The notes under the pieces: generated by a model
What the model was told of the DNA's origin: nothing
The model's database searches: none
The model's input: only the letters and a program-made list of their open reading frames with translations
Part shown: piece by piece, positions 3,951 to 28,902 of the stretch
Numbering within the stretch: the first letter of the stretch is position 1
How the letters are laid out: each line of letters begins with the position of its first letter
Program-made: the position numbers and the translations under genes
Origin: a virus
DNA length: 28,902 bases
UHGV virus genome: UHGV-1442816
Strand: one strand, 5' to 3'

Positions 3951-3955
3951 TAATT

Positions 3956-4294
3956 TTATCCTTTTATTTTTACACAGTCATAAGTTGCATACTGACGTGG
4001 TGCATCCATATTTGCTTGCAGCCACTGAGCATTCAGGATTGCTTTACCATTACGGCCAATAAACTCCATTCCTACCCATCGCCCTGGTTGATTGGTCGCT
4101 AAGCGCCATTCAATTTTGACGTTGTTATAATCACCGTCATTTTTAAGAAATGTCACTTTTTGCGATTCAGGTTTAGCTCCGTTTACGCGAGCGAAACCAT
4201 CATCAGCCCAATGGATGTTGAAATCACCACACTGAGAATCAGCAATAGCCTGGAAAGAAAATAATGCTGCAATGGTAAAAATTACGAGTTTCAC
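3956..4294 (-). CDS. Small secreted/periplasmic protein (moron), unknown function
   Basis: ORF track gives 3956..4336; I place the start at the in-frame GTG at 4294..4292, giving (M)KLVIFTIAALFSFQAIA/DSQ..., a canonical signal peptide, with a GAGG-containing stretch upstream and no overlap with the hub gene stop at 4305. AT-rich. Confidence 0.55.
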   Translation of the reverse strand: MKLVIFTIAALFSFQAIADSQCGDFNIHWADDGFARVNGAKPESQKVTFLKNDGDYNNVKIEWRLATNQPGRWVGMEFIGRNGKAILNAQWLQANMDAPRQYATYDCVKIKG

Positions 4295-4304
4295 GTCCCG
4301 TACC

Positions 4305-5369: not shown

Positions 5370-5371
5370 TT

Positions 5372-5677
5372 CTACTCCTGTACGAAAATGAGGTGGCTGT
5401 ATGTGCCGAGGTTGGTTTTGGTGGGCTCGTCTGGTGCGCCCTTATCGGTCGCCACCACCAGCGCGCCATCAATGCCAAGCTGTGGATATTGTCGTAATAG
5501 GTTCACGCCGGTCAGGAGAGGTACGCCAGAAAGAAGCGCAGCACCGCCGCTATCCATCACGTCCATAATCCAGCCAGCCGCATCACGCCAGATGATCCTG
5601 AGTGTATACGTGGTATTGCCCAGCAAAACGCGGAACTGCTGATTGTCAGGAGAAAGCGGTATTTCGTTAAACTGCAT
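5372..5677 (-). CDS. Tail/baseplate assembly protein, unknown function
   Basis: 101-aa ORF tightly packed between the 200-aa tail protein and the hub gene. Confidence 0.45.
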   Translation of the reverse strand: MQFNEIPLSPDNQQFRVLLGNTTYTLRIIWRDAAGWIMDVMDSGGAALLSGVPLLTGVNLLRQYPQLGIDGALVVATDKGAPDEPTKTNLGTYSHLIFVQE

Positions 5678-5678
5678 A

Positions 5679-6281
5679 TCATCCCCCGAATGCTGATGTA
5701 ACGCTTCCGCCCAGCTGGCTCAGCAAAGATTCGTTTGGCGGTGTAGTGGATTTCGTCCCGGAATTTTGCACCGCCGATGTGCTGACGCCATCCTGCATAT
5801 CTGATTTATCAGCAACGCTAACGCTCTGCGTTTGCGACATGATCACTTCACGCAGGGTAAGCGTGCAGTTCAGCACGTTCTCGCTGGTTTTGTCCGTTGT
5901 CACCTCGATGGCTCTCACCAGCATATTGCTGTACACCCGCTTCCCGGTCACCACATCGAACGGCACCCGGGAGGACTGGAGATCCAGCAGTTGCTGATAG
6001 GTCTCTTTCGGGCTCAGTCCGGCGCTGAGGCCGATTGAAGATGTATCAATGAAGTCCAGCAACGAACCGCCCCCAGCGAAGCCGCATTCCATTGTGACTT
6101 CGCTGGGGCGCTTATACGCATGATCGGCGATGAAACCCGAGGCGCTATTCGTTGTTGGCTTCTCCACCGGGTGCTCAGTAATTTCGAGCGCATCAGAATG
6201 CTTTTCGGAAACGACCACGCTGGGGATCAGCAGGCCAATTCGCCGTGATTGCTGGCGAAAAATCGCTGATAAAATATCCAT
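5679..6281 (-). CDS. Tail protein following tape measure (possibly DNA-circularisation N-domain-like)
   Basis: 200-aa ORF whose start overlaps the tape measure stop; position equivalent to Mu gp43 / P2 gpU. Confidence 0.4.
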   Translation of the reverse strand: MDILSAIFRQQSRRIGLLIPSVVVSEKHSDALEITEHPVEKPTTNSASGFIADHAYKRPSEVTMECGFAGGGSLLDFIDTSSIGLSAGLSPKETYQQLLDLQSSRVPFDVVTGKRVYSNMLVRAIEVTTDKTSENVLNCTLTLREVIMSQTQSVSVADKSDMQDGVSTSAVQNSGTKSTTPPNESLLSQLGGSVTSAFGG

Positions 6282-8548
6282 TATCTCGGTCCTGCGGGGA
6301 GTTGCTGGGTTAACTGTGAATTCACACCCTTTTGACGGTCAACAGTCAAACGGGCAGCTTCGCGAGGATCGGAAACGCCGTGGATGTTAATGTTCGTTTC
6401 CTGCTGAATCACCGGGGCGCTGGTGGGCATATTGCTCATTACTTTCGGAATGTAATTGCGCGTTTCCTGCGGCATTAGCCCCATTCCATAACGTTGAACG
6501 TTCCCGATTCCCCAGTTATATGATGCAAGTGCTTTGCTAAGGTCTCCGCCGTTCTGCCGCAATAGCTGGCTAAGGTACTTAGCGGCTGCCTGAGCTGACT
6601 TTTCCGGGTCGAACACATCGTTACCACGCAGGCCCATGTCTCGCGCCGTGCCATCCATGAACTGGAACAGCCCCTTTGCACCCGCGCCGGACATGGCGAA
6701 CTGGTTACCACCTGACTCGGTTATCGCCACACTTTTCAATAGACCAGCTGGAAGTTGATAAAGCGACTCAAGTTTATTGAACATTGGCCCCATCCAGTCG
6801 AGCAATACTTTGCCCTGGGCTGTGGCCTGTGGACGTTTGACTGATTGCGCAAACTGGGAGGGGTCACCCGATATATTTGGAGAGATTTCAGCAGCTCCAG
6901 CCGGGGAGAAAAATAAATTACCGATTTTGGCAATCCCGTCTGAGATTTTTTCAAGATAACCATTAGCAGCCTGCTGACGGTTTTTTATTTCATCTCTTTC
7001 ATGCGGGGCAATTTCATTACTACGAACATGCTGTTCCGCCCCGGGAATGTCAGGCTGAACATTATCGCCATAAACGACGCCATTGCTTTGCGCCTGACGA
7101 ATAATCTTACCTGGGCCACCATGCAGCCAATCCATCCATGCGGGCCATTCTCTTACCTCGCTAACATCTTTTCGCCCAAGGTCGGTTTTGATGCCAACCG
7201 TAGCAAGAGCATCACCAATGTTCCTTTTGGTATAGTCCAAAGATGATTTAGCACTGGCTTTTATGTTTTCACGATCTGAAACCAGGTAACCAGCATACGC
7301 TCCCCATAATTTAAGCCATGGAGGTATCGGAAGACCGGATATTTTTGCGAATGCTCCCAATACTTTTGTTACCCATACCCCAGCGATGAAAGTAGCCAAA
7401 ATTTCCAGCGAGTTCTGCCATCCACCAACAGAATCTTTCAGCCCCAGAAGCTTATCGCGCAGCCAGAGAATTGCCTTTTTCGCCTTTTCTATTGCAGGCT
7501 CCCACTTGGACCAGTCAATCAGGCTTTTACCGCCTTCTTTCCACGTCTGATAATCGTCATAGAGTAATCCGATCGCCAGAATCAGCGTGGTGATAATTCC
7601 AATCGGGGATTTCAGGAACGCAGAATTAAGCAGACGCCATGCGACAAGTAGAGCACCGAATATTTTCAGCAGATTTTTACTGCCATCGTCAAGACGCTTC
7701 CACCAGTCAATGACAGAGCCAGCGCCCTGTATGAGCCGCCACGCCATTCGCGTGAAGGCGTTCGCAAGCCAGATCACGCCTTTAATAACTCTGGTCAGCG
7801 TCTCTTCAATCTTCGGGAAGTTGTCGAGGATGCGCCGCCGCAGGCTGTCCAGCGAACCAGCAAGACCACCAGCGAGGTTTGAGCCGATCTTGTCCCGCAT
7901 AATGCCGAACAGCGACGTAAGCCCGCGCATGGACGTCATGAATTTATTGGACTGCACAGCCGCCTTATCAGCGTTGAACCCAGTCTTTTGCAGCATAGAC
8001 TGGTAATCGGCGGTAAAGCCATTCATGCCGCGCCGCATCGCCATCAGCGTGTTTTCATCGATGCCAAGCATCTGCGCGTATTGCTTCGCGCGGTAATACG
8101 GCATGTTGTTGAGCTTTTGCCCAACGCCAGTAAAGATGGCCGCAGTATCACGCATCTTTCCGCTGGCATCGCGAGTCTGGACGCCCAGGCGGTTCAGGAA
8201 GCCTTCCGCGCCCGGATTGCTACGCATGAAACCGGCCAGCCCTTCGAGGGAGGACATAGCCGACTCGGCGCTGGCACCGGTTTGCGATGCGGCGTATCCC
8301 AGCGCTTTGATGCCCTGGACACTGGCCCCCGTCCGCTGGGATGCCCAGTAAATTTTATCCAGACCGTTCGCGATCTGAGTGGTAAATCCGACAATGCTCA
8401 GCGCTGCGCCTTCCACCACCGCGCCGACCTTCAGAACGTTAGCTGTAACGCCTTTCAGCACGGCTTCAAACTTATTAGCGCCAGCCTGATCGATATCGAA
8501 TCCCAGCGAAACAAGGAAATCTTTAATCGTATCTGCGTTACCGCTCAT
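6281..8548 (-). CDS. Tail tape measure protein with C-terminal lytic transglycosylase (SLT-like) domain
   Basis: 755-aa ORF, alpha-helical Ala/Gly/Leu-rich body with hydrophobic segments, directly after the chaperone frameshift region; C-terminal motif ESGGNQFAMSGAGAKGLFQF resembles the SLT catalytic region. Confidence 0.8.
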   Translation of the reverse strand: MSGNADTIKDFLVSLGFDIDQAGANKFEAVLKGVTANVLKVGAVVEGAALSIVGFTTQIANGLDKIYWASQRTGASVQGIKALGYAASQTGASAESAMSSLEGLAGFMRSNPGAEGFLNRLGVQTRDASGKMRDTAAIFTGVGQKLNNMPYYRAKQYAQMLGIDENTLMAMRRGMNGFTADYQSMLQKTGFNADKAAVQSNKFMTSMRGLTSLFGIMRDKIGSNLAGGLAGSLDSLRRRILDNFPKIEETLTRVIKGVIWLANAFTRMAWRLIQGAGSVIDWWKRLDDGSKNLLKIFGALLVAWRLLNSAFLKSPIGIITTLILAIGLLYDDYQTWKEGGKSLIDWSKWEPAIEKAKKAILWLRDKLLGLKDSVGGWQNSLEILATFIAGVWVTKVLGAFAKISGLPIPPWLKLWGAYAGYLVSDRENIKASAKSSLDYTKRNIGDALATVGIKTDLGRKDVSEVREWPAWMDWLHGGPGKIIRQAQSNGVVYGDNVQPDIPGAEQHVRSNEIAPHERDEIKNRQQAANGYLEKISDGIAKIGNLFFSPAGAAEISPNISGDPSQFAQSVKRPQATAQGKVLLDWMGPMFNKLESLYQLPAGLLKSVAITESGGNQFAMSGAGAKGLFQFMDGTARDMGLRGNDVFDPEKSAQAAAKYLSQLLRQNGGDLSKALASYNWGIGNVQRYGMGLMPQETRNYIPKVMSNMPTSAPVIQQETNINIHGVSDPREAARLTVDRQKGVNSQLTQQLPAGPR

Positions 8549-9151
8549 TGGCCGCTCTCCATTTATCTACCCGGGCGTCGTTATCCTCGCGCATGTCGAG
8601 GTAGTCATTGAGAAGCGCGATGCGGCAAAGGTCTACCGCACCGCTGTTAAGGTCTTTCTGGTCAATATGGAAGGCAAGCGCCGGGCGAAGAATAAAATCT
8701 TCACCGCCCGGCAGGCTGTTGAAGGTTATTCCGCTAGCGGGGTGGGCGTCTCGCTGGTAGGGAGTCCTTGCAAAAAATTTCCCAGCGAGTCGGCGACCAC
8801 CCGCGCCACCAGTTGCAGCATGGTAAGCAGGTCGATATCGTCAAACGCCATTTCGCCATGCTGGCAGACCGGCACCCAGCCTTTCATGTGCTCGCGTGAA
8901 ACAACGGAAAGACAGGGGAACAGGATAGCGTCCACGTCGCCATCACTCAGATCGGACACAGCATTGGCAATCTTTGGCAGGATGGTAGCCATCGCGCCTT
9001 CGGTGTCTTTGCTGCTGATCTTCTCCTGAACGCTCCGGAAGTCAGAAACCATCCCGGCCAGAACCGGCAACAGCTTGCGGGACACCTTCAGCTGTTCGAA
9101 AACGCTGAGCTTTGCGGTGCGATATTTCACGCCTTTAATTTCGAATTCCAT
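8538..9151 (-). CDS. Tail assembly chaperone, predicted -1 frameshift fusion product (G-T / E-E' type)
   Basis: The -1 frame is open from the slippery heptamer TTTTTTG (minus strand, 8777..8771) to a TAA at 8540..8538, adding about 77 residues that overlap the tape measure start. Confidence 0.5.
8726..9151 (-). CDS. Tail assembly chaperone (zero-frame product)
   Basis: 141-aa ORF between the tail tube gene and the tape measure gene, the conserved chaperone position. Confidence 0.6.
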   Translation of the reverse strand: MEFEIKGVKYRTAKLSVFEQLKVSRKLLPVLAGMVSDFRSVQEKISSKDTEGAMATILPKIANAVSDLSDGDVDAILFPCLSVVSREHMKGWVPVCQHGEMAFDDIDLLTMLQLVARVVADSLGNFLQGLPTSETPTPLAE

Positions 9152-9154
9152 GCG

Positions 9155-9595
9155 TTAAAACTCCCCGAGAAGCTGGTCAATCTTGCCGCAGTCGAATACC
9201 CAGGCGACGGTTCCGCCCTCTTTAGCGTTATTGAAATCAGGCTGTTTCTGGAATGCACACGAACGCGCAGTAGAAATATCACCCGATGCCGTGTTGCGAA
9301 TGACGATCACGTTATTGCCCCAGGTGGCAGAGGACTGGCTTTGCGCGTTATACGCCAGAGACAGCTTCTTGTTAACCGGGGAGGTTTTCAGCAGCGTCAC
9401 CGTAATGGTGCCTGACTTATCGGCGTGCAGGCTGTGCATCACTTCGCCATCGGCACCGATGGTCATGGTGTTTTTGTTGCCGCCCATGGTCTGGGTAATA
9501 CCTTCCTCAGAGTTGGCAGAACCCTGACCAAGATCGATAACGCCGGTCGGCCCGGTGAGCGACGCGGTTACATCGAGAAAAGAATAAGTTGCCAT
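9155..9595 (-). CDS. Tail tube protein (contractile tail)
   Basis: 146-aa ORF immediately downstream of the sheath gene. Confidence 0.7.
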   Translation of the reverse strand: MATYSFLDVTASLTGPTGVIDLGQGSANSEEGITQTMGGNKNTMTIGADGEVMHSLHADKSGTITVTLLKTSPVNKKLSLAYNAQSQSSATWGNNVIVIRNTASGDISTARSCAFQKQPDFNNAKEGGTVAWVFDCGKIDQLLGEF

Positions 9596-9605
9596 TTATC
9601 GCTCC

Positions 9606-10766
9606 TTAGCGAACCACGTTGATCTGCACATCGGCATAATGAACTGCGCCAGCCAGCTTACAAGCCACCTGGATTAACGGCGCTTTGCGTGCTTCTCGGT
9701 CAGCCTGTGCTTGCTCGGAAAGAGGTTGCGCATACACGTAATAACCTTTTGTCAGCGTATCGCCGGAATTCAGTTGCCCGATAGGGCCACCATTCCACAC
9801 GCCAGCCGCTACCAGACCGTTCGTGACGGACTGATCCATGGACTGTTCAACGTTGGAAAGCAGACGGGTCACACCGGCATCAGTCTGCGGAATTTTGGTG
9901 GTGCTGGTGTAAAGCAGGTTATAGAGGTTGGTCTGAACGTAGTTCTGCAACCAGTCGAGCCCGTGGCGCTCGTCGAAGAAGTCACCGTTCGCCATGACAC
10001 CCTGTTGCAGGATCGCCGTGTCGTTGGCGTAGTACACGAACACGTTCGCATTCTTCGCATCCACAGCCGCCGCCTGTCCTACCGTCAGCGTTTCGTAGGT
10101 TACGCTCGGTTCCTGTTTGAATTTCAGGGTAATGGTGGTATTGCTGCCGTTGAAATTGACAGTAAACGCGCGACCGAAAGCTGAAACCGCCGCATAAGGG
10201 CTGCTGGTGGAATATTGAATAAAGGTACGGGAATACTTACCGGCCTTTAATTTAGACGCAACATCGGTCGTCGAAGTCGTGCTGATGATCTCAGCGTCGG
10301 CTGACGTTACCCCGAAAATGCGGCTCAGGCTGGACGCTTCGATGAGTTTAGCAACCTCAATCACGTCGTCAGCATCAAGCACATCATCGCCATCAGCAAC
10401 ATCATCAGCGACAACCAGCCCATACCAGTTGGTATACTGCAGGCAGGCATTAACAGCTTGCACGATGGTTTCCACGCTTCCACCTTCGGAAGAGGTCAGC
10501 GTCTTCGCCCAGCGGCCAACATAAACCTGCGTCGGCTTCGGCGACTGGCTGAAGAAAACCTGCGCCGCTTCATATTCCGGGCTGTCGACTCCGAAGTCCT
10601 CGCCAATGTCCTCAACGGACGCATAAAGGCGAACGCGCTCCTGCACCGGAATGACAGTGGAAGAACCGAGGATCAGCAGTGCGCCGAAGTTACGACCAGT
10701 AGCCGCTTTCGGCGAGATGATCACATCAACGTTTACAACGTTGGATACAGGTAAGCCCTGCGTCAT
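9606..10766 (-). CDS. Tail sheath protein
   Basis: 386-aa ORF; size and position before the tube gene; sequence character resembles the myovirus sheath family. Confidence 0.8.
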
Positions 10767-10769
10767 AGT

Positions 10770-11375
10770 TTATTCTCCAAAAAAGGTGACTGGCGCTTCC
10801 ACCAGCGATTTAATGCCGTACTCGCGCACGACCTTCCGGCGCAGGCGCACCGTCATGTCGTAGCGGCGAACCCATTGCTGGTTGATAAGTTCGGGGAAAG
10901 GGGTCAGGCCGGTATAGTCTCCCAGGGACAAACCGAGCGCATTCAGCTCAGCATTGTTTTGCGGGACAGATATGCCATCACGAAAACGGGACGCATAAGA
11001 CATACCAGCCGGGCCATAGAACGACGCCATGCACTCGAACGTTTCATGCCGCCAGAGCTGTGCGCCCTCGTCGGTCTGATTGGTGAATGCAGGACTGTTA
11101 TCAATGGGCCACCCGGTAACGCCGAACGCACACCAGTTCGTTTCAACTGACGGTAGTGATGGCTGTTCTTTCTGCCAGCGCGGGCGAACCATCCCCGCAG
11201 GCAAGCCGGAAACATTGCGCATCCATCGGCTTAGCAGCCTGTCGAGCGCTTCGTCATAATCAGGATCGCCGCTGGTGGGTGTCAGCCAGCCGCGCTCTGT
11301 GCTGGTGTTATTGCTCAACGGGAGTTCCCCCATCAAACGGCAGTAATTCGCAATGTGCCTGGACAAAGCCAGCAC
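10770..11375 (-). CDS. Head-tail joining / tail completion protein, unknown function
   Basis: 201-aa ORF between head genes and sheath; true start may be an internal Met because the 5' end overlaps the preceding ORF. Confidence 0.4.
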   Translation of the reverse strand: MLALSRHIANYCRLMGELPLSNNTSTERGWLTPTSGDPDYDEALDRLLSRWMRNVSGLPAGMVRPRWQKEQPSLPSVETNWCAFGVTGWPIDNSPAFTNQTDEGAQLWRHETFECMASFYGPAGMSYASRFRDGISVPQNNAELNALGLSLGDYTGLTPFPELINQQWVRRYDMTVRLRRKVVREYGIKSLVEAPVTFFGE

Positions 11376-11697
11376 CGTAAGCCGTGTACGGGTCGACGAA
11401 TGTCACACGATAATCACGGTTCTGGTACGTCACGATATCGGCATCACGGCCAGTCTGCCCCTGCGTCAGCCGCTCAGTTGTCACGATGAGAATCGCGCCA
11501 CTGATAACCTGGCCGGACTGCATACGTCGGTTTTCCAGGGAGCGGTCAACAGTAACATCCCCGGCAAACTGCTTTTTAACTTCACTGTCGCTGCCGATCC
11601 CGTCCTCATCCACCGTTTGCACTCGGCGTGTTACCCACAGGTTGAAGTCGCAAAAATCGGGGTCAAAAAGTACGTCCGTCACATCAAGATTCGGCAT
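11308..11697 (-). CDS. Head-tail joining protein, unknown function
   Basis: 129-aa ORF in the structural operon. Confidence 0.4.
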   Translation of the reverse strand: MPNLDVTDVLFDPDFCDFNLWVTRRVQTVDEDGIGSDSEVKKQFAGDVTVDRSLENRRMQSGQVISGAILIVTTERLTQGQTGRDADIVTYQNRDYRVTFVDPYTAYGAGFVQAHCELLPFDGGTPVEQ

Positions 11698-12238
11698 CTT
11701 TATCCCTCACAACATGGGTAATGGCTCTGCGATATTGCCCGGTGTCAATTAGCGGTTTCACCAGGTCGGTTCCGGGAGACTCGCCAGCAGCGCGCCGCGC
11801 AAGTTCCGCTTTTGCCCCTTTGCGGCCACGGCGTGCACGGGCTTCAACGGTGCTATCAGCAAGCGGTGTAAAGCCGGTAATGGTCATGTAACGCCTGACG
11901 CCATTAGCGGCCAGCGTTCCGGCGCGGTTGAGCGCTCTTTCCGCACCCGCCGCATTACCATCAAGCGCAGCCTGCGCTGCTGCTTTTAGCTGCGGCACTG
12001 TCTGTTCTTCTACCGATTTAACACCGGGGATCAGGTGTGGTCGTGGGGGGATGTTTTGCGCCGGTGAGCCGTATTCATTGACGTAGCCGATCCCCGCATT
12101 ACCAAACGGAACATCTTCACGCTCGCTGTCTTCTTCCGGGATGCCCACCAGCACTTCTTTTTTACTGATGGATTTGAGCGCATCCAGGATGGCCTGAGCG
12201 TTATCCACCCTCGTTGTTACACCGCTTTTGAAACTCAT
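11684..12238 (-). CDS. Virion morphogenesis / neck protein, unknown function
   Basis: 184-aa ORF in the structural operon; start overlaps preceding stop. Confidence 0.4.
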
Positions 12239-12642
12239 AGCTGGCGACCGCCCGCACCGAACATCGTGATCAGCTGATAAAATTCAGCGCCATATCGGGT
12301 GTTATTCCAGAAGCCTGCGTCAGGGTTTAGCGTCGCGCTGGTGTCATAGCTGACGCTTACCTTGTCAACGGACTTGGAGGACTGAACACCATTGGTTGAG
12401 CCACCCGGGCCGCCGACGAGCATTGCCCGGCTATCTGCCGCCCAGAGCGTCATGTAGTGAGCCACGAACAACTCGACAAAGTACGGAAACAACTCTTTGC
12501 CGGTGACGTTTTCGCTCAGCAGCACATCAGCCAGATTCAGACGAAACTGGATTTGTGCTTCGGGATATTTGGCAGGGTCAGCAAACTGTGGAAAGTCGCG
12601 CCGAAAATCACTTACTGTTGGCAGGCTTTGATTCTTTGGCAT
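12235..12642 (-). CDS. Head completion / connector protein, unknown function
   Basis: ORF track gives 12235..12741; the first 30-odd codons overlap the upstream gene, so I favour the internal Met at about 12642. Confidence 0.4.
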
Positions 12643-12997
12643 CTTTCGCCCCATTACCGCCAGTCTGGGCGGCAGCAATCTGCGCTTGCAGGCTGTCGTT
12701 CTGCTCTTGCAGCTTGAGCAGCGCTTCTCGCAGATCGGCAATCAGCTGATCTTTATCGATAATCTGCTTATCTTTGTCGGCAATCTGAGCTTGCAGGCTG
12801 TCGATAATGGGTTGCAGATCATCGGTGTCGCTAATCACGCTTTCGGAAAGCTCGGAGTGCGCCTGGGTGAACCAGTGCGACGCGACCTCTTCCGGTACGT
12901 TATGCCGTCCCCGGCCAAACTCCCTTTTTGACTGATCGCCGAGCGTCAGCGTAAACGGGGTGTGAACATGGATGGTAACCAGCTTTTCTTTCGCCAT
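12608..12997 (-). CDS. Structural protein with C-terminal coiled-coil repeats, unknown function
   Basis: 129-aa ORF directly after the capsid gene and a stem-loop; C-terminus has heptad-like Q/D/K/L repeats mirrored by DNA repeats. Confidence 0.45.
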
Positions 12998-13038
12998 TTT
13001 CAGTTCCCTTCTGGCCCCTTTCGGGGCCGTTCTGGTTA

Positions 13039-13398
13039 TCAGATACCGTCCACGTAGGACAGGGTTTCTTTGTACACTGGCTCAACCGCACCGAGCTTGC
13101 CGTAGTAGGTCGCAATCTGATACAGACCGCGATACTGGACAGGAACGCTCTGCAACGGCACCAGCGGATAGCGCACGTATTTCTTGTCGTTGGTGTAGGC
13201 GATCATACGGTCTTTACCGCCAACCCCACGCCCTTTCAGCCATTTGACCGCTTTGATTTCAAGCGGAACGCCGTTCTGGTGGAAAGCGATAGTGTTCACA
13301 GCCAGATAGGTCAGCAGTGACTGGTTACCCGCTTCGGAAACCTTACGGCTCGCCAGCAGTGAATACTGCTCTGGCGGAATGCGCAGATCAGAAGGCAC
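13039..13398 (-). pseudogene. Major capsid protein, C-terminal part, downstream of an in-frame TAG
   Basis: Same frame as 13420..13980 and separated from it only by TAG at 13422..13420 plus seven sense codons. No Shine-Dalgarno sequence before the GTG at 13398. Confidence 0.55.
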
Positions 13399-13419
13399 GA
13401 TGGAATAACCGGATGCTGC

Positions 13420-13980
13420 CTAGGCATTAGACAGAATGCTGTTCACGCTATCGAGGATCTCGTCGTTGGTTGAGTTCGCCCAGGTCTTCGGCGCGTTGTT
13501 CAGCGTCACACCGACGAGGTTTGCCAGACCTTTCAGGCCGAGTGCGTCATCACCGATGTAAACCTGCTCGTCGTTGTCCATCTGCCATTTGAGCTGCATC
13601 CCGTCGTACTTCTGGGTATCAATCGGGCGGCCTACCTGCTGAGCAGCTGCCAGCTCTACAACGGTCCAGCCCAGTTCCATACCCCAGAGGTTCAGTGGAT
13701 TGCCGTCTTTGCTGATATCCACGTTCACGCCAGCAATAGCGGTGGAGTCTTTGCCTACCCAGTTTTTACCATTCGGATTTGCACCAGTACCCGCAGCGGC
13801 GAAGCTGGTATTCGTCCAGCTGGAAATGTCATCTGCGATAGACACGTCTTCACGCAGTTGAATATCTCGGGTCCAGGTGTACCCCACCAGAGGCAGGTTC
13901 AGCGTCTGGTCGAGTCGCTCCAGCTCCCCGATGAGAAAGGCACCAGAGCTATCAACGGTTGCCTGATCAAAAGTAATCAT
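13420..13980 (-). CDS. Major capsid protein, N-terminal part, ending at an in-frame amber codon
   Basis: 186-aa ORF in the position expected for the major capsid gene (after scaffold and a 167-aa head protein). The two parts together give about 313 aa, a typical capsid size. Confidence 0.55.
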   Translation of the reverse strand: MITFDQATVDSSGAFLIGELERLDQTLNLPLVGYTWTRDIQLREDVSIADDISSWTNTSFAAAGTGANPNGKNWVGKDSTAIAGVNVDISKDGNPLNLWGMELGWTVVELAAAQQVGRPIDTQKYDGMQLKWQMDNDEQVYIGDDALGLKGLANLVGVTLNNAPKTWANSTNDEILDSVNSILSNA

Positions 13981-13991
13981 TCGTCTGTTCC

Positions 13992-14495
13992 TTAAATCTT
14001 CCAGGAGATTTCTGCATTGCCGTTAGCGTCACCGGCCCCTGTGAATTCGGCGTTGGTCAGCGCCACGTTTTTGCCACTGACGGACGTGGACATGAAGCCG
14101 CCCAGCGGCACTTTGATGGATTCATCAGTGGAGACGACAACGTATACCGGGTCGCCTTTTTTGATGGTGCTGGCATCAAAATCAGAACCGAGATTAACGG
14201 TCATGTAGCCACGCTTCATGGCGTCACCCGGGAAGTTCTTATCCGTCCCCACCTGGCGAACCATGTCTGGCTGCGATGTGGTCGGATACGGACGAACGTA
14301 GATCCCCTTCACCTTGTCGGCGGTGTCACCGTCCGCCAGCGGCACGAAAAAGCCGTCAGCGTCATATTTGCCAGCCAGACCATAGGCAGCGAAGGCGTTA
14401 GCGGATTTAAGGATCACCGGCTCGACGGTTAAATCCTGCGGGCGAGAGATAGCCCCGGCAATGCCAACAGGCATCCGGTACAAATATGCAGTCAT
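13992..14495 (-). CDS. Head protein (possible decoration or accessory head protein)
   Basis: 167-aa ORF between scaffold/protease and major capsid genes. Confidence 0.45.
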   Translation of the reverse strand: MTAYLYRMPVGIAGAISRPQDLTVEPVILKSANAFAAYGLAGKYDADGFFVPLADGDTADKVKGIYVRPYPTTSQPDMVRQVGTDKNFPGDAMKRGYMTVNLGSDFDASTIKKGDPVYVVVSTDESIKVPLGGFMSTSVSGKNVALTNAEFTGAGDANGNAEISWKI

Positions 14496-14499
14496 TGGA

Positions 14500-15732
14500 T
14501 TATCCTTTGCGGTTAGACCAGAAGTCGGCGTTTTGTTTGTTCAGGGAAGCGATGCTGGTCATGCCCATATTTGGACGTTGTGCATCGCCCGTGGTGCTGC
14601 GGGTGTTTCGCCCTTTGGCAATCTCTGACACGGCGTTAAACGCCATATCTACCGATTGCTTGGGCAATTTGCGGATATCCGCATCACCGACAACCTGGCG
14701 AACCAGTGTTTTGTCAGCGGCAGCCAGCACATCACGTTTGAACGCGGTCGGTTTCACCTTACGGCTCAGATCGATACCCGGGACGATAACCTCGGCACGA
14801 TAGGCAGAGTCACCGGTAATCGTGGTTTCCTCTTCGTCGTCCTCGCCGTCGCCGGTCGGATCTTTTTTGTCTTTTTCGTCAGGCTTATTGTCGTTATCGC
14901 CCGTCGCAGTTCCTTCGAGCTTAGCCAGCAGGGCTTTGAGCAAGGTTTTGATATCGTCCTCGCCGTCGCCGGTTGGATCTCCGCCCATTTCCGGCTTTTT
15001 GTCCGGCAATGGTTGCTGCGGTGAAAGGTTAATGTTGAGGTTAACGCCGCTCGGCAGATCCCCTTCGTCACCCGTTACCGCCGCTGGCGCAGAGTCCAGC
15101 AGTTCGTTCATGGTGTCAGCGTCACCCGTTTTGATGGCCGTGCGCATGCGGGTCCACCAGCTTTTCTTTTGATTTGCCATTGTGTCTCTGTCTCCAATTG
15201 CACAACGATTTCCGGCTCTGCCTTTAGGGACAAGAGCCACATGGTTTCCGGTAATATCGACCTGCTCGGCTTTACCTGGCTCGGTCTGCTCGTACTCCGC
15301 GTCATAGCCGCACGACACTTCGCGCAGACCATCTTCGATAAGCTGAATGGCGCTTTCGTCTTTGACGATAAGGTCTGCCAGCATCAAATCAGACTGGTCA
15401 CCAGTCCCGCGCCGCACATTCTGAAGATGCCCGACAGCAAGCTCTTTCCAGTTCTCGGGATTTACCAGCCGCACATTCCCGTTTTCATCTTCAGGATGCA
15501 GGATCGTGATGCTCATCCCTTCGAATGAGGCGAGCGTGGCCGGATGGAATACCTGCTCAGGAGAACGCGTTACGACTATCTCACCGAGCTTGTCGGGTTT
15601 GAGGTTTGGCAGATCGGCAGCGCCGTAGAGCTGCTTACCCGTTCGACCTATCGGCACGTCTTTACACAACAGCGAGCCGTCAGCCAGCTGATAGCGGGTT
15701 TCCCCCAGCCGGGTATTGAAAAAATATTTCAT
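14500..15732 (-). CDS. Putative prohead protease / scaffold protein (Mu gpI-like)
   Basis: 410-aa ORF after the MuF-like gene; C-terminal half is highly acidic and low-complexity with repeated DPTGDGEDD motifs, typical of scaffolding domains. Confidence 0.5.
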   Translation of the reverse strand: MKYFFNTRLGETRYQLADGSLLCKDVPIGRTGKQLYGAADLPNLKPDKLGEIVVTRSPEQVFHPATLASFEGMSITILHPEDENGNVRLVNPENWKELAVGHLQNVRRGTGDQSDLMLADLIVKDESAIQLIEDGLREVSCGYDAEYEQTEPGKAEQVDITGNHVALVPKGRAGNRCAIGDRDTMANQKKSWWTRMRTAIKTGDADTMNELLDSAPAAVTGDEGDLPSGVNLNINLSPQQPLPDKKPEMGGDPTGDGEDDIKTLLKALLAKLEGTATGDNDNKPDEKDKKDPTGDGEDDEEETTITGDSAYRAEVIVPGIDLSRKVKPTAFKRDVLAAADKTLVRQVVGDADIRKLPKQSVDMAFNAVSEIAKGRNTRSTTGDAQRPNMGMTSIASLNKQNADFWSNRKG

Positions 15733-15746
15733 GGTTTACCTGCGAT

Positions 15747-16520
15747 TCAGGCGAGATAAGAATGAGGGTTGGGGAAGACGATTTCTTTGTAACAGCGGCA
15801 GTTCGGCAGCTCACCAGCGTGACCGGTCATACCGTCAAGCGTTGGAGGTCGGCCCCATTCGACAAACTTACCTTCCATCTCCCGATGAGAATGCCGGACG
15901 TCGCCATCTTCGGCTGTACGCCAGATATAACCATTCGAGCCGATTGACAGCGCACGCGCCTGATCCAGCGCGCCGGTTGCGCGTCCAAGCTCGGTACGGG
16001 CGATAAGGTTCGCTCGTGAGCGTGACACGTCACCGGACGCAGCTATCTCTTTCGCGAATGGCTCAGCGCGGCCACCAGCCACAACGGCCTCGATGGCTTT
16101 GTTCTGAATGTCATACACCCGATCGGCGGCCTCAAGAGGCAGTGACTTGATGTACTTAATTTGCTCGGCGACGATGGATTTCATCACCTGGCCTACCGGG
16201 GCGCGGTCGACCATGTTGCGTAGTTCTGCGCTGATGTTCCGGCTGTGCTGACGCCACTGCTTTTCATTCTGGCGCGCTATGTCTGCGGTGAAGTTCTCAG
16301 CAACCTTCGTCGCCCAGGGGGTGATGATTTCGCTGTAGCGCTCCAGCGCATCCATTATTTCGGTGACGCTATCGTTTGAACCATCGTAGCGCCCATTTAC
16401 GATATCCCCGACCGCCCGCGCTATCTGCCGTAGGCTCGTTCGATATCGGATCTCCGCCTGGCGACTCTGGCGGTTTGTCGCCAAGTTCGCCGATGCCTGG
16501 CGGCGCTTCGTCTTCGGCAT
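15747..16520 (-). CDS. Head morphogenesis protein (Mu F / SPP1 gp7 family)
   Basis: 257-aa ORF immediately after the portal gene; start uncertain because the first ~50 codons overlap the portal 3' end. Confidence 0.6.
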   Translation of the reverse strand: MPKTKRRQASANLATNRQSRQAEIRYRTSLRQIARAVGDIVNGRYDGSNDSVTEIMDALERYSEIITPWATKVAENFTADIARQNEKQWRQHSRNISAELRNMVDRAPVGQVMKSIVAEQIKYIKSLPLEAADRVYDIQNKAIEAVVAGGRAEPFAKEIAASGDVSRSRANLIARTELGRATGALDQARALSIGSNGYIWRTAEDGDVRHSHREMEGKFVEWGRPPTLDGMTGHAGELPNCRCYKEIVFPNPHSYLA

Positions 16521-17838
16521 TCTCGATATCCTCGTCGGTAATGGATGCCCCGATGCCGGTGACGTCAGAGTTTTCGCGCAGGTCGGTCATCGCCGCCTTA
16601 CGCGTCATCAATCCGTCGCCCAGCGCGGTACTGATCGCGTTGGTGGTGTTTACGGCCACCGTTGATCGGTCAACGTCTGACATTTGCCATAGCGGGTTAA
16701 ACTCAAACGTGAAATCGTCCGGCAGCGGCTTACCGAGTTCCGATCGGTGCATAATGTCCAGTATCCGGCGCATCGGCAGCCGTAAGCGGCGCTCCTGCAA
16801 TGAGCTCACCCGGTCGTAATAGTTGGCGAGGTCTGCGTCACCAGTAGAGAAGCCTTTTGGGGACTGACCGAACAGGCGTACCAGCGGGATACCAACGGCA
16901 CCGCTGATCTGCTCAGCGAACTGCGAAAGAATGTCATCCAGACCACTGAAGCTGTACTGGTGGGTTTCGAACTTATCCCGCGAGTCCATGAGCGTCATGC
17001 CTTCATTGCTCTGGAACTGGCGGATCAGGTCGATGTTCTTCAGCAGCGCCTCGAACGCCGGGCCGCCAAGCGCGATAAGCTCTCGCAGCTTCTCCACGCT
17101 GTAGGTGCGCAGATGCGCTTTGTAGACCAACTGAGCCGCGCCGACAGTGGCGCTGTCGAACGCAGTAAGCCGATCCCAGATACGCTCTACAACCGACATT
17201 CCCCATTCGTTTTCGGTCATCTTCTGCTGGAATGGCAGCGTCACCCCGTCGAAGCGGATCAGGCGACTGTGATGGATGCGCCAGGCCGGGATGCCCGTTG
17301 CGGTGGTCACCACGTCGTAAAACTCAGGTTTGCCGAGATCTGGCCCCATCTCTTTAATGCGGCGTGTCAGCACCGGGTTAATCATCCAGCGGTCGAGCGG
17401 GAGAATGCCCTTAAACTTGCCCTCGCCAATGGTTTCGAGTCGCAGCGGGGTCATTGGTGCCTGCCCCTCGATCATGATGAAGCCGACCGCGCCGCCGTAG
17501 AGACGCGACCATTTCAGCACGTCGTTCAGCGCATCCCAGATCTGCAACTCATCCAGTTGCGCTTCGAGGGTGCCACGGTCTTTGGCGTCAATCTCCGAAG
17601 TGATGCGAATGCCTTTACGGGTCATGTCGTCCGGGATAGCGTCGACCGCTTCGCCGATAACCCACGAACCGCGATATGACCATTCCACCAGCATGCGGTT
17701 GCGGCTGGTGGAGTTCGCCCGGTAGGTTGATGCTGAATGCTGGTTAGGCGTCTGCATCCCCACGCGGGCGAAAAAGTTCTCATAGCCATCAGCGGTGGCC
17801 TGTGCCGTTCGCTGAGAGGATTGCTTGTTTCGTGCCAT
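16369..17838 (-). CDS. Portal protein
   Basis: About 490 aa; I place the start at the Met whose ATG overlaps the terminase stop (TGATG) rather than the upstream Met of the ORF-track call 16369..17865. Position directly after the large terminase. Confidence 0.75.
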   Translation of the reverse strand: MARNKQSSQRTAQATADGYENFFARVGMQTPNQHSASTYRANSTSRNRMLVEWSYRGSWVIGEAVDAIPDDMTRKGIRITSEIDAKDRGTLEAQLDELQIWDALNDVLKWSRLYGGAVGFIMIEGQAPMTPLRLETIGEGKFKGILPLDRWMINPVLTRRIKEMGPDLGKPEFYDVVTTATGIPAWRIHHSRLIRFDGVTLPFQQKMTENEWGMSVVERIWDRLTAFDSATVGAAQLVYKAHLRTYSVEKLRELIALGGPAFEALLKNIDLIRQFQSNEGMTLMDSRDKFETHQYSFSGLDDILSQFAEQISGAVGIPLVRLFGQSPKGFSTGDADLANYYDRVSSLQERRLRLPMRRILDIMHRSELGKPLPDDFTFEFNPLWQMSDVDRSTVAVNTTNAISTALGDGLMTRKAAMTDLRENSDVTGIGASITDEDIENAEDEAPPGIGELGDKPPESPGGDPISNEPTADSAGGRGYRKWALRWFKR

Positions 17839-19283
17839 CAGGCTTGCCTCCCGAGCAATTCCCAAATATCCATTGTTGTATCGGTCGGCGCGAACGCCAT
17901 TATGAAAGCGTCGGCAATGTTAGGTGAGGGGATATCGCGCTTAGCCAAATCTTTCTTGCTTTCAACCATAACCCTACCGTTACGATCAAAGTCTCGGTGC
18001 GGGGTCGTCAGCTCAAGCTTTAGTTTCTCCAGGTGCGGGCACGATGAATCGATACTTATCAACTCATCAACAGGATATTCCTCTCCATTTTTCACCGCGT
18101 TGAACGTATTACGAAAGCGATCAGCTACCAGCCACCATGCCTGGGCTTTCAGATTGGCAAAGAAGTCTTTATTCGGAATGCCGTTATATTCAGAATCTGG
18201 CTCGTTCACACCAGCGCCAGCATTGAAGCGTTGATAATTAACTGGTCGTGAATAAGGATTTTCACGTCGTCTGTCTTCGTTAATTTCCGAGAATTTAGCA
18301 CCAGCAGAAGCGCCAACACCAATGGAGTCATAAACGATATCAGCACTTCTCTCTGTGGCTGCCTGATATGCCCGCTGGCAGCTTTTAAGAAGCTCGTCTT
18401 CTTTTGCCTTCCATTCATCAGCCCAATACACAACGGAGCCATGACGATAAACATTGGAGCACTTATCCGCACCGCTATCGGCAACGTCGAAGCCTATTCG
18501 CTTTCGTCCGTTTGGCTCAAAACCAAGCACCTTATGGGCATCTATTGCAGCCTCAATCCACGAAAGTTTAATAATTGCCGCGTCATCATCAGATTCGGGA
18601 ACCCCCATATAAACGTGGTCAAACCCCTCCGGATCACGACGCTTTGCAGCCGAGATAACCTTAAGCATGGTGTCTGAGAGGAATGGGTTTTCGTCGTAAT
18701 TGATTTTTCGCACCAACGTATCTTCTGGTGGATCAACAACGAAATTACGCCATACAAAGTCAGTCACCAGACCAGGGTTAAAAATAAACCAGCATTCAGA
18801 TCCGCTTTTACGAATGGTTGGTTCCAGTATCTTCCACTGGTATTCCGTTAGTGCATGGGCTTCTTCAAGCCACAAAACGCTGATACCTTCCAGGGATTTA
18901 ATTTCTTCGATATTGCGCCATAAACCGTAAAACACGAATTCTGAGCCAGTGACCCGGTTGATAATTTTATTATTCAGAATTCGGAAGCGATGCCGCAGCC
19001 CAAACCGTTCAATCTGTATTTTGAGCAGGGTATAAACCGACTCTTCGATTTTGTTCTGAATTTGACGTGCGCAACAGAAACGCAGGTTGTATTTATTTGC
19101 CAGAAAGACAGCAAACCCAGCAGCATCCCATGACTTTGACGATGAGCGCCCACCAAAAAGTACTTTATTTCGAGCCTGTGTCGTCCAGAAGTTCCTTAGG
19201 GCCGGATTCAGGGTCGGTTTGGATGTCAGAGTAGAAGTCATTAAGGTCACGATCTCCATTACCGTCATCAACGCCAGCATCAC
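17838..19283 (-). CDS. Terminase large subunit
   Basis: 481-aa ORF with Walker A-like GGRSSSKS near the N-terminus; size and position. True start may be an internal Met near 19241. Confidence 0.8.
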   Translation of the reverse strand: MMLALMTVMEIVTLMTSTLTSKPTLNPALRNFWTTQARNKVLFGGRSSSKSWDAAGFAVFLANKYNLRFCCARQIQNKIEESVYTLLKIQIERFGLRHRFRILNNKIINRVTGSEFVFYGLWRNIEEIKSLEGISVLWLEEAHALTEYQWKILEPTIRKSGSECWFIFNPGLVTDFVWRNFVVDPPEDTLVRKINYDENPFLSDTMLKVISAAKRRDPEGFDHVYMGVPESDDDAAIIKLSWIEAAIDAHKVLGFEPNGRKRIGFDVADSGADKCSNVYRHGSVVYWADEWKAKEDELLKSCQRAYQAATERSADIVYDSIGVGASAGAKFSEINEDRRRENPYSRPVNYQRFNAGAGVNEPDSEYNGIPNKDFFANLKAQAWWLVADRFRNTFNAVKNGEEYPVDELISIDSSCPHLEKLKLELTTPHRDFDRNGRVMVESKKDLAKRDIPSPNIADAFIMAFAPTDTTMDIWELLGRQA

Positions 19284-26263: not shown

Positions 26264-27714
26264 CAGAATCCTCCTTTCTTCTTGGACTGCGGTTCCTCGC
26301 GTTCACGTCGGCGCATTTCAGCAGACTGTTGGTCTGTGTCATAAATAGCGCCATTTGCCTGAATGCAATACACCGTGCCGGTATTGCCATGACGATTGAG
26401 ACGAAGGATTAGTTCGGTTTCACCAGGTGGAACACTGTCATCAAAAGCGCCTTCACGATGGATCCCAACCCAATAATCGCAATCCTGTTCAATCTGCCCT
26501 GTATCGCGCGAGTCACTTGGTAATGGGCGTTTATTGGTTCGGCTTTCCAATGCGCGGTTAAGCTGTGTCAGAAGCACAACAACGCAATCAAGCTCTTTGG
26601 CAAGGTTCTTCAATCCTTTGGTGATCATGCCGTAAGCAAGGTCGTTGCGATCGGCCTTCTCAGCAGTCATTAGTGTCAGGTAATCGACCAGAATCATGCC
26701 AACGCATCCTTTTTCTCGCTTGATTCGACGGCTTTCGCTGACGATTTGAGCCAGAGATAATCCCGGCGTGTCGTCGATGTAAAGCAGGTCGATTTCACTC
26801 AAGCGATTGGCTGTTTCGATCGCCCTGTTGAAGTCACCATCGTAATCACCCTGATAGCCGTCATCAGCGTCATTTGTCGCCGGAAGGTAAAAAATATTCG
26901 GGTTAACACCTGACTTCTGTCCTACCAGTTTTTCCAGTATCTGGTCACCTGGCATTTCAAGGCTGAACATCAGAGCGGGCTTTTTCTCATGCACCGCACA
27001 GTTGATTGCCATCTGGCTGTATAGCGTCGTTTTCCCCATCTTAGGGCGAGCGCCAATGACGAACAGAGAGCCTTTCACCAGACCTTTCGGTGACAGCATC
27101 CTGTCCAGCGATGGGATCCCTGTGCTCATTCCCCGTTGTTCGCCTGATGGGTCAAATCGTTTCTCAAGGTCGCTAACCCAGTCTTCCATAACCTCACCAA
27201 ATGAGCGAAGGCCGCGACGCGATCCGGTTTTTGCATGGTCTGTCAGTTGCGTGAAAATCGCCTGAATAGCTTCGTACTTCTGCGTCGCAGTCATTCCGTT
27301 GCGGGAATAGAGCAATTCCGTCGCTTCAGTCATGCGGTTGATGGCGTAGCGTTCCATTGCGGTTTCGCGAACCTGCATTGCATAGGCAACGATGTTTGCG
27401 GCGCTTGGCGTGTTCTTTGCGATCTCAGTGATATAAGCAAAACCGCCAACAGACGCCGTTAACGATTTACGCTCCAGTTCATCGAAAAGCGTCAGGCCAT
27501 CTACTGGCTTTTGCTCCCGGTGCATTCTGGTTATTTCTTCGAAAATGATTTTGTGTGGTCGGCTGTAAAATGAATCAGGCTTCAGCATCGCCAGAACTTT
27601 CTGGACGCGCTCACTGCTGTCATCATCCAGAAGCAATCCACCAATCACCGCCTGCTCTGCCTCGATGCTATGGGGCGGCGCATAAAAATTATCGGTCATC
27701 GTGTTCACCCTCAC
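26263..27714 (-). CDS. Replicative DNA helicase, DnaB family (P22 gp12-like)
   Basis: 483-aa ORF with N-terminal AEQAVIGGLLLDDD (DnaB N-domain-like) and Walker A GARPKMGKTT. Confidence 0.85.
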   Translation of the reverse strand: MRVNTMTDNFYAPPHSIEAEQAVIGGLLLDDDSSERVQKVLAMLKPDSFYSRPHKIIFEEITRMHREQKPVDGLTLFDELERKSLTASVGGFAYITEIAKNTPSAANIVAYAMQVRETAMERYAINRMTEATELLYSRNGMTATQKYEAIQAIFTQLTDHAKTGSRRGLRSFGEVMEDWVSDLEKRFDPSGEQRGMSTGIPSLDRMLSPKGLVKGSLFVIGARPKMGKTTLYSQMAINCAVHEKKPALMFSLEMPGDQILEKLVGQKSGVNPNIFYLPATNDADDGYQGDYDGDFNRAIETANRLSEIDLLYIDDTPGLSLAQIVSESRRIKREKGCVGMILVDYLTLMTAEKADRNDLAYGMITKGLKNLAKELDCVVVLLTQLNRALESRTNKRPLPSDSRDTGQIEQDCDYWVGIHREGAFDDSVPPGETELILRLNRHGNTGTVYCIQANGAIYDTDQQSAEMRRREREEPQSKKKGGF

Positions 27715-28579
27715 GAACTTTCAGGTAGGTATTATCGTTAAGCAGGAAATCAAATCCCTTTTTGTGCCAGACGGTTCCGCGTTGATGGTTTTGGCGCTCT
27801 TCGAACATCCATCGGCAATTTTCGCCTACGTAGCTCAAATAATTTCTCCAGTCCTGCATCGTGAACCCATGCCCGTCAAGCTGGCGGGTTATCACTCCGG
27901 CTTTGCGCCAGAACGTTCGGATCTGGTTTTTACGCTTGTCATTCAGTGCGCGGATTTTTGGCGCTTCAGGAAGGATTTCGTGGTAAGCATCGACAACATC
28001 CTGACAGCTAACGGAAGGTTTTTTCTTGTCAGACTTTTTGTCTGCTGCGGTACTCTCTAATACGTCAGTATTAGAGATATTATTTATATTATTGTTTATG
28101 GACAACCGTTGGACAACCGTTGGACAATCTCCGCTGAGAGCCGCGCCATTACTGGTGTTTGCGTTGGACAACCGTTGGACAACCGTTGGACAATTTTTTG
28201 CCTGAAAATCGTCATATTTAACGATTGTAAACAGGCTAAATTTCTTCCCCATCGAGCAAATATTAAGCATCCCTTTCGACTCAAAAGTCCGTAATAAGCT
28301 CCGAACTTTGTTGTCGGGGATGAATGTTTCTCTGACCAGCGACGGGCGTCCAGTTATCATCTGACCGCGATCAACAGTTATCGGCCCGATATCCGTATTG
28401 ACGACAGTAGATTCGTGATTAGCCTTGAGGATTAAGTGAAGCCAAAGATGTACTGCCTGAGAGTCCTTATAGAGCCTGCTGTCCATAAACTGGCGGTGTA
28501 TAGAGACATACCCCATACTGGATGCCTCCTGATGTTGTACAGGGTTATGCCTGTAATCAGCTAACTTAACGACGCCCAT
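27689..28579 (-). CDS. Replication initiator, O-like, with origin iterons inside the coding sequence
   Basis: 296-aa ORF directly upstream of the helicase gene; mid-gene iteron clusters encode the repeated peptide CPTVVQRLS. Confidence 0.75.
   Translation of the reverse strand: MGVVKLADYRHNPVQHQEASSMGYVSIHRQFMDSRLYKDSQAVHLWLHLILKANHESTVVNTDIGPITVDRGQMITGRPSLVRETFIPDNKVRSLLRTFESKGMLNICSMGKKFSLFTIVKYDDFQAKNCPTVVQRLSNANTSNGAALSGDCPTVVQRLSINNNINNISNTDVLESTAADKKSDKKKPSVSCQDVVDAYHEILPEAPKIRALNDKRKNQIRTFWRKAGVITRQLDGHGFTMQDWRNYLSYVGENCRWMFEERQNHQRGTVWHKKGFDFLLNDNTYLKVREGEHDDR
28099..28195. repeat. Replication origin iterons: two clusters of TGGACAACCGT repeats
   Basis: TGGACAACCGT at 28099, 28110, 28165 and 28176, each pair followed by a partial copy (TGGACAAT); 35-bp spacer; AT-rich tracts on both sides (28040..28098 and 28191..28245). 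Confidence 0.7.
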
Positions 28580-28727
28580 GTTTCACTCCTGCTTTGGCTA
28601 GTCTGTAAACACCAACAAGGCGCTCTGCGAACGCCCTGTTATTTGCTGCGGCTACCACTAATCCCTCAGGTGAATCAGGGTGTCGAATCTCTTCTTTTTC
28701 CTGGTATTTCTTACGACGTTTTGTCAT
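28569..28727 (-). CDS. Small basic protein between cII and O, unknown function
   Basis: Not in ORF track. ATG at 28727 preceded by AGGAG 5 nt upstream; product MTKRRKKYQEKEEIRHPDSPEGLVVAAANNRAFAERLVGVYRLAKAGVKHGRR (52 aa); stop overlaps the O start. Confidence 0.4.
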
Positions 28728-28736
28728 AATGACTCC

Positions 28737-28815
28737 TGTGGATTGATCCAGTAATGACCTCAGAATTGCATATCAATTTGCTTAAAATCCTCGGTGGCGG
28801 CCGGGGATTTTTTCT
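28737..28815 (+). ncRNA. oop-like antisense RNA overlapping the cII 3' end (putative)
   Basis: Plus-strand hairpin AAAATCCTCGG-TGGCGGC-CCGGGGATTTT followed by TTCTTTGT at 28784..28820 lies antisense to the cII 3' end, as for lambda oop. A possible -10 CATAAT at 28725..28730 would give a ~77-nt transcript. Confidence 0.4.
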
Positions 28816-28902
28816 TTGTGATTTCATCAAGCGCATACTTAAAAGCCCTGCTAATCGGACTGATGTCTGATGCCATTCCTAAAGCACACAAGACCGAAGC
28901 AA
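28760..28902 (-). CDS. cII: CII-like transcriptional activator, C-terminal 47 codons (5' partial)
   Basis: Minus-strand ORF entering from beyond the window end and stopping at TGA 28762..28760; C-terminus ...ITKKKSPAATEDFKQIDMQF resembles lambda CII ...NKKRPAATERSEQIQMEF. Confidence 0.65.
   Translation of the reverse strand, partial: ASVLCALGMASDISPISRAFKYALDEITKKKSPAATEDFKQIDMQF

Follow-up and report, generated by a model that had tools for sequence, protein, structure and literature searches.

What fills the space between cII and the replication initiator gene in the virus genome UHGV-1442816, and to which of these two neighbors does it belong? The 28,902 nucleotides (nt) of this genome that we analyzed (hereafter, the window) had been read, from the letters alone, as carrying an expanded form of the cII-O junction of phage lambda. 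In this original prediction, a small basic open reading frame (ORF) had added coding capacity to the region of the lysis-lysogeny decision, and a terminator resembling that of the antisense oop RNA lay over the 3' end of cII. Our analysis points to a different picture of the small ORF and a similar picture of the terminator. The best explanation overall is that the region is, very probably, a standard immunity/replication module junction of a lambdoid phage or prophage, and comparison with known genomes makes the HK97/Sf6 type of this junction, both in identity and in architecture, close to certain. This arrangement is already known, having been annotated since the genome papers of HK97, Sf6, ES18, and P22, and is not novel.

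The gap between cII and the initiator gene (positions 28580-28759) measured 180 nt, matching the size that had been estimated. The ORF in it encodes 53 amino acids including the initiator methionine, one more than the 52 first reported, and the product is highly basic as described, with an isoelectric point of 10.7 and 14 lysine or arginine residues against 6 aspartate or glutamate residues. A good ribosome-binding site, AGGAG, was correctly recognized and lies at 28737-28733, 5 nt ahead of the ATG. Most of the ORF is held in the gap, but its final 14 nt overlap the start of the initiator gene.

The product of the ORF matched the profile phrog_1331 from end to end (residues 1-53 against all 53 profile positions). 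HK97 gp53 and Sf6 gp42 have the same sequence (100% identity), and ES18 gp58 and epsilon34 gp49 are close homologues. By sequence, the small gene belongs to the HK97 gp53 family (PHROG 1331), and we refer to it as gp53. Members were found in 97 phage records, comprising phages of Escherichia, Shigella, Salmonella, Cronobacter, Enterobacter, and Erwinia and including a number of Shiga toxin (Stx) phages; the ORF is left unannotated in several phage records. At the nucleotide level, the entire junction (503 bp) was 99% identical to HK106 and mEp234, and at least 80% of a 291-bp junction stretch was found in 299 of 5,426 complete E. coli genomes. The family is narrow, with 68 matches among 5.8 billion proteins, each of them called "hypothetical."

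The place of gp53 relative to lambda O is marked by a conserved 33-bp lambdoid "boundary sequence" (Table 1), which contains the 5' end of oop, the AGGAG at 28737-28733, and the codon at which the following gene starts. Alignment of the window with lambda, HK629, HK97, and Sf6 revealed that the 32-nt spacer, the ribosome-binding site, and the ATGAC of lambda O are homologous to those of gp53. In lambda, 32 nt separate the end of cII (38653) from the start of O (38686), close to the 30 bp or so that had been stated; the distance from cII to gp53 is the same 32 nt. Because the start signals of lambda O align to those of gp53, we place the small gene between the conserved boundary sequence and O. 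Judged from this alignment, the junction is not stretched, and the description of it as expanded does not stand.

To survey which genes follow the boundary sequence, we scanned IMG/VR with the boundary pattern and pooled the results with previously fetched loci and the window, which yielded 127 junctions. The following gene was of the gp53 type in 52 junctions, lambda O directly in 45, of the P22 orf48 type (48 amino acids) in 27, and something else in the remaining 3. The gp53 arrangement is therefore the commonest of the three types in this sample. Hayes et al. 2012 (PMC3349717, Figs. S1 and S2) compared cII, oop, orf, O, and P over 23 lambdoid phages, and both the HK97 gp53 homologue and P22 orf48 are named there.

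On the strand opposite these genes, the GC-rich hairpin and T-tract described over the cII 3' end are present (Table 1) and form the sole terminator-like site within 28300-28902. The hairpin had a predicted free energy of -16.4 kcal/mol (z-score, -3.5), and only 1 of 200 shuffled sequences folded as well. Its position also corresponds to that of the oop terminator, as had been proposed. The predicted 77-nt RNA aligned without gaps to lambda oop, with identity at 60 of 77 positions, including 25 of the 27 nearest the 5' end. Its fold consists of the same two hairpins, at -27.2 kcal/mol (z-score, -3.65) compared with -28.5 kcal/mol (z-score, -4.27) for lambda oop. The 5' end of the predicted RNA falls just before the AGGAG, and the RNA overlaps the last 55 nt of cII (28760-28814), including the stop codon (28760-28762, minus strand); the oop/cII overlap in lambda is likewise 55 nt (Hayes et al., PMC3349717). 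In the records of P22, HK629, and HK633, oop is annotated at the same place. The alignment with lambda oop indicates that the plus-strand hairpin is a homologue of the oop terminator. In Rfam, which seemingly has no oop model, no family reached its threshold over 27500-28902, and the matches at E values up to 10 were at chance level, none of them oop.

Among 16 distinct variants of the lambda and HK97 types, 99% of the aligned terminator cells were paired. Two pairs changed in a compensatory manner (C-G to U-A and G-C to C-G), and these changes alter cII residues: an Arg of lambda becomes Ser through one arm, and an Arg becomes Asp through the other. The covariation evidence is thin, since it comes from essentially one lineage split. 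However, P22/Sf6/ES18-type cII ends carry their own hairpin and T-run, made from unrelated sequence, and the Cronobacter, Erwinia, and Enterobacter relatives also carry their own at the end of cII.

Two further observations concern the fold of oop. The 5' hairpin (28738-28781) is present in RNAs of the lambda and HK97 types alike, but the two types pair it in different registers with the cII-overlapping part. Hybrids of the two types that occur naturally fold less well; the hybrid at locus L018, for example, reached -24.1 kcal/mol, compared with approximately -30 kcal/mol.

Whether oop is transcribed in this phage depends on a pO-like promoter whose -10 hexamer, CATAAT, overlaps the gp53 ATG. 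Several points count against its activity. The -35 hexamer agrees with the consensus at 2 of 6 positions, and a promoter scan made no call at pO in the window, although it found pO in lambda (TTGAGT-17-CATAAT) and in P22 (TGGTCA-17-CATAAT). In lambda, 45 nt of promoter is insufficient and 94 nt is needed (PMC5869508). The sequence upstream that is equivalent to these 94 nt is entirely different in the window.

These points would fit a hairpin that, in this class of phage, survives only as a relic or serves only the structure of the cII 3' end, with no oop RNA made because the promoter lost its -35 box and its upstream sequence upon replacement of the O 5' end by gp53. However, the -10 hexamer and its TG extension are kept, and diverged relatives retain a -10-like hexamer there (TAAAAT, TATAAT, or CATACT) despite changed surroundings of the start codon. 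In addition, the terminator has been preserved by compensatory changes at the cost of altered cII residues and has been rebuilt from unrelated sequence in the P22, Sf6, and ES18 types. Because the compensatory and rebuilt hairpins are otherwise hard to explain, we favor a transcript that ends at the hairpin. We consider a relic or purely structural element improbable and think it likely, from the sequence features of the locus, that oop RNA is made in this phage. Its level of expression is uncertain because of the weak -35 box.

Having considered the antisense strand, we return to gp53 and its neighbors. The cII 3' ends and their oop elements fall into four unrelated classes, which combine freely with gp53, orf48, and lambda O, while the overlap of gp53 with the initiator gene is constant. 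The gp53 stop codon and the initiator ATG overlap by 14 nt in all 46 scorable IMG/VR gp53 loci, and an overlap of 14-26 nt is kept in 12 diverged homologues. We therefore place gp53 with the initiator and not with cII.

This pattern bears on the idea that gp53 regulates the lysis-lysogeny decision, for example by stabilizing or antagonizing CII in the manner of the small lambda protein CIII. Such a role would account for the location of gp53 immediately downstream of cII in a shared early transcript, where the two would be coexpressed. The protein is also small, basic, and likely to contain an amphipathic helix, and the oop promoter overlaps the 5' end of gp53, so that expression of gp53 and transcription of oop could interfere. 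A regulator of CII would not be expected to assort freely with the four cII/oop classes, however, nor to be found never apart from the initiator gene. In locus L141, an extra ORF of 84 amino acids (2168-2422) separates cII from the gp53 homologue, and in locus L133, the cII slot is occupied by a 121-amino-acid gene (2563-2928) without a Pfam match. No CIII-like family matched gp53 in PHROGs at E values up to 1, where phrog_1331 was the sole match, or in Pfam. We regard a regulatory role of this kind as unlikely, and the proposal that coding capacity was added to the lysis-lysogeny decision region is not supported by the free assortment of gp53 with cII/oop types and its unfailing overlap with the initiator.

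The context of gp53 in more distant phages is consistent with its placement beside the initiator. All 10 diverged homologues that we examined within their contigs had the same order, namely a gene in the cII slot, gp53, and an overlapping initiator. Eight of these initiators matched Pfam Phage_rep_O; of the other two, one was cut off by the end of its contig and one had no Pfam match. A DnaB-like or Toprim helicase came next in all eight diverged contigs that reached beyond the initiator. In the paper describing epsilon34 (Casjens and colleagues), the gp53 homologue is listed among the replication genes.

The initiator that follows gp53 always begins with MGVVKLADYR and then diverges into at least three types (296, 273, and 282 amino acids). 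Its first 10 codons (28550-28579 in the window) travel with gp53 while the remainder is exchanged, which places a mosaic joint approximately 30 nt inside the initiator gene. According to the epsilon34 paper, similarity of the initiator of that phage to lambda O begins only at residue 17.

Next, we examined whether the gp53 peptide itself is under selection. Compared with homologues from Cronobacter, Erwinia, and Enterobacter phages, gp53 had a ratio of nonsynonymous to synonymous substitution rates (dN/dS) of 0.08-0.16, with synonymous sites near saturation (proportion of synonymous differences [pS], 0.55-0.70). Over 13 diverged sequences, the median ratio of nonsynonymous to synonymous proportions (pN/pS) was 0.39 in frame; shifting the frame either way gave 1.40 and 1.44. 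The start codon, the ribosome-binding site, the length (52-57 amino acids), and the stop codon were kept in all 13. The frame of the small ORF is thus conserved in relatives, so that one of the two findings named in the original prediction as refuting it, a lack of such conservation, was not observed. Because the constraint is specific to this frame, the substitution pattern indicates that gp53 is a real gene whose peptide is under purifying selection.

Conservation of the peptide also speaks to a second alternative, in which gp53 would be only a translated leader that delivers ribosomes to the initiator start or unmasks it, with the peptide having no function of its own. The conserved stop/start overlap, the initiator ribosome-binding site inside gp53, and the presence at the same place in P22 of orf48, an unrelated ORF of 48 codons with an overlap of 8 nt, would all fit such a leader. 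Against this, the amino acids of gp53 are strongly conserved across saturated synonymous divergence, including in the motifs HPDSPDGLV and FAERLIGVYRLAKAG, which lie well away from the initiator overlap. Furthermore, no conserved RNA structure was found to sequester the initiator start: the RNAalifold consensus reached only -1.9 kcal/mol with no convincing covariation, and the pairing probability of the initiator ribosome-binding site (0.36-0.76) was unremarkable. On these two grounds, we rejected mRNA structure as support for coupling enforced in this way. A leader whose peptide is without function appears improbable to us. That the ORF is a chance frame in a region conserved purely as regulatory DNA, as its shortness, its lack of a Pfam family, and its absence from the annotation of several records might suggest, is refuted for practical purposes by the frame-specific substitution pattern, the dN/dS values, the conserved start, ribosome-binding site, and stop, and the full-length PHROG match.

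What gp53 does is a matter for a tentative best guess. Purifying selection, together with the constant company of the initiator and of a phage-encoded helicase, leads us to take gp53 as a small accessory protein of the replication module, a reading that we hold as plausible while giving it somewhat less than even weight. The small ORF, whether gp53 or orf48, co-occurs with a phage helicase that is either DnaB-like (458 or 483 amino acids) or a Toprim-helicase (loci L012-L141); in the same sample, a direct lambda O start led to lambda P in 34 of 35 cases. An AlphaFold2 model of gp53, with a predicted local distance difference test (pLDDT) score of 69, has a basic tail at residues 1-20 followed by helices at residues 21-29 and 31-49. 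The N-terminal tail is probably disordered in this model, which fits a small binding protein and proves nothing.

Several results weigh against an accessory role in replication or give it nothing to build on. That the small ORF accompanies a phage helicase could reflect function, or it could be mere linkage in a mosaic genome. A profile search of 1.84 billion representative proteins returned only 24 small clusters and no larger, annotated, or remote homologue; among these clusters, there was no fusion of gp53 to an initiator. Searches of gp53 against Pfam, NCBIfam, PADLOC, and the PDB gave no match to which a function could be attached. A Foldseek search of the model against a viral structure library likewise gave no match at an E value below 6, the model being short and uncertain. 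In the literature on the function of HK97 gp53 or P22 orf48, we found positional mentions only. An "orf48" in PMC12373910 is numbered after that paper's own library and is unrelated to P22 orf48.

Taken together with the known biology of lambda, these features suggest how the junction may work. The early right transcript from pR would be translated through cII, gp53, and the initiator gene, with the boundary sequence supplying a ribosome-binding site and start codon to whichever gene comes after cII. Translation of the initiator would be coupled to that of gp53; the overlap of the two genes is observed, and the coupling is what we infer from it. The weak structural consensus described above does not favor such coupling, and the initiator has a good ribosome-binding site of its own, so it may be independent of gp53 translation. 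By homology to lambda oop, the 77-nt RNA would pair with the last 55 nt of cII and the spacer on the pR transcript. In lambda, pairing with oop leads to RNase III-dependent cleavage and less CII. By analogy, oop would lower CII through RNase III in this phage as well. Finally, gp53 might use its basic tail and the helices of its C-terminal half to bind or tune the initiator or the helicase.

We compared this junction with those of well-studied phages. HK97 gp53, Sf6 gp42, ES18 gp58, and epsilon34 gp49 occupy the same position between cII and O and have the same 14-nt overlap with the initiator, and we see no difference of substance between this family and the window. The particular combination found here, an HK97-type cII end with gp53 and the Sf6-type initiator of 296 amino acids, is shared by HK106, mEp234, and HK75.

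The window shares with lambda the 32-nt spacer, the ribosome-binding site, and the ATGAC, but lambda starts O directly at this point and continues with P (233 amino acids). In contrast, the window starts gp53, its initiator begins with the different decapeptide noted above, and a phage helicase comes next. The predicted oop resembles that of lambda in its length of 77 nt, its 55-nt overlap with cII, its two-hairpin fold, and its -10 CATAAT with TG. It differs in that gp53, and not O, contains the -35 and upstream sequences, which bear no relation to those of lambda. In addition, the part overlapping cII is just 35/50 identical, because the C-terminus of cII in the window is of the HK97 type, and two pairs of the terminator stem are changed in a compensatory manner. 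For lambda, a LexA site has been reported within the oop-pO region (PMC5869508).

The c1-oop-orf48-18-12 region of P22 is similar in layout. It has a CII-like gene, the promoter and terminator of oop on the other strand, the boundary sequence, and an ORF of approximately 50 codons that overlaps the initiator start and is followed by a DnaB-like helicase. The overlap is 8 nt for orf48, compared with 14 nt for gp53. Profile comparison of gp53 with P22 orf48 detected no similarity (hhalign probability, 0.05%; E value, 0.83). On this evidence, P22 orf48 is a positional analogue of gp53, and homology is not supported.

The features of the junction are listed in Table 1. All four genes (cII, gp53, the initiator gene, and the helicase gene) are on the minus strand, and the end of cII in the window was aligned with lambda, HK97, and HK629 cII. 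Contexts homologous to the helicase locus carry Pfam DnaB/DnaB_C. The helicase ORF, whose GTG start lies at 27714, shares 26 nt (27689-27714) with the end of the initiator gene, giving a chain of overlapping genes from gp53 through the initiator gene to the helicase gene; the true start of the helicase is possibly an ATG five codons further in.

Table 1. Features of the cII-initiator junction in the window (28,902 nt), listed from the cII end
Feature	Position	Strand	Details
cII 3' end (HK97-type)	28760..28902	-	Runs off the window end; Pfam Phage_CII, E 7.4e-8; phrog_191, E 3.4e-11
oop terminator (tO-like), predicted	28784..28811	+	12-bp stem, 4-nt loop, T-run to 28813
Predicted oop antisense RNA, 77 nt	28738..28814	+	5' end set from homology with lambda oop
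Conserved 33-bp lambdoid boundary sequence (Sf6 bsq5)	28720..28752	-	32/33 match to consensus ACTGGATCaATCcACAGGAGTaATTATGaCAAA of PMC3349717; annotated in Sf6
pO-like promoter, putative	28702..28730	+	-10 CATAAT 28725-28730; TG extension 28722-28723; weak -35 TGGTAT 28702-28707
53-codon gene, HK97 gp53 family (phrog_1331)	28566..28727	-	Full-length profile match, E 1.4e-37
Candidate coupling junction	28566..28590	-	Initiator AGGAG 28590-28586 inside gp53; initiator ATG 28579-28577; last 14 nt of gp53 overlap initiator start (ATGGGCGTCGTTAA)
O-like replication initiator, Sf6 gp43 type, 296 aa (amino acids)	27689..28579	-	phrog_345, E 3.5e-85
DnaB-like replicative helicase, 483 aa	26263..27714	-	From the ORF list; same 483-aa protein after the 296-aa initiator in related loci

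Within the initiator gene are origin-like repeats, arranged as two clusters of three 11-bp iterons each (GTTGGACAACC) at 28099-28131 and 28165-28197. An AT-rich stretch adjoins the iterons (28070-28197 in the window), and the Sf6 record annotates a rep_origin at the same place. An antisense ORF of 119 amino acids within the initiator gene (27701-28060, plus strand) is probably a chance frame. Elsewhere in the window, the virion genes (3903-18000) resemble those of Citrobacter phage Omnitron (96%) and those of E. coli phages whose annotations include terminase genes and a DUF3383-domain protein. The window has its cII-O junction in common with HK97 and HK106 but not its virion genes, which do not resemble theirs; the window is thus a mosaic.

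As a discovery, the junction matters little; what gp53 does and how active pO is in this class are points of modest value. One broader possibility is that gp53- and orf48-type proteins of approximately 50 residues are partners of lambdoid replication modules that have their own helicase, acting as an adaptor, in a loader-like capacity, or as a regulator of the initiator, an idea that we consider speculative and rather unlikely. Lambda P is the loader of the host helicase. If the idea were true, proteins of the gp53 and orf48 types would do the job that lambda P does in modules that borrow the host DnaB. In this class of phages, the oop promoter has lost the -35 and upstream region of lambda; whether oop is made there, and how strongly, bears on how the level of cII is set. 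More generally, gp53 represents a strongly conserved microprotein whose gene overlaps that of the replication initiator in many prophages of E. coli, Shigella, and Salmonella, among them some Stx phages.

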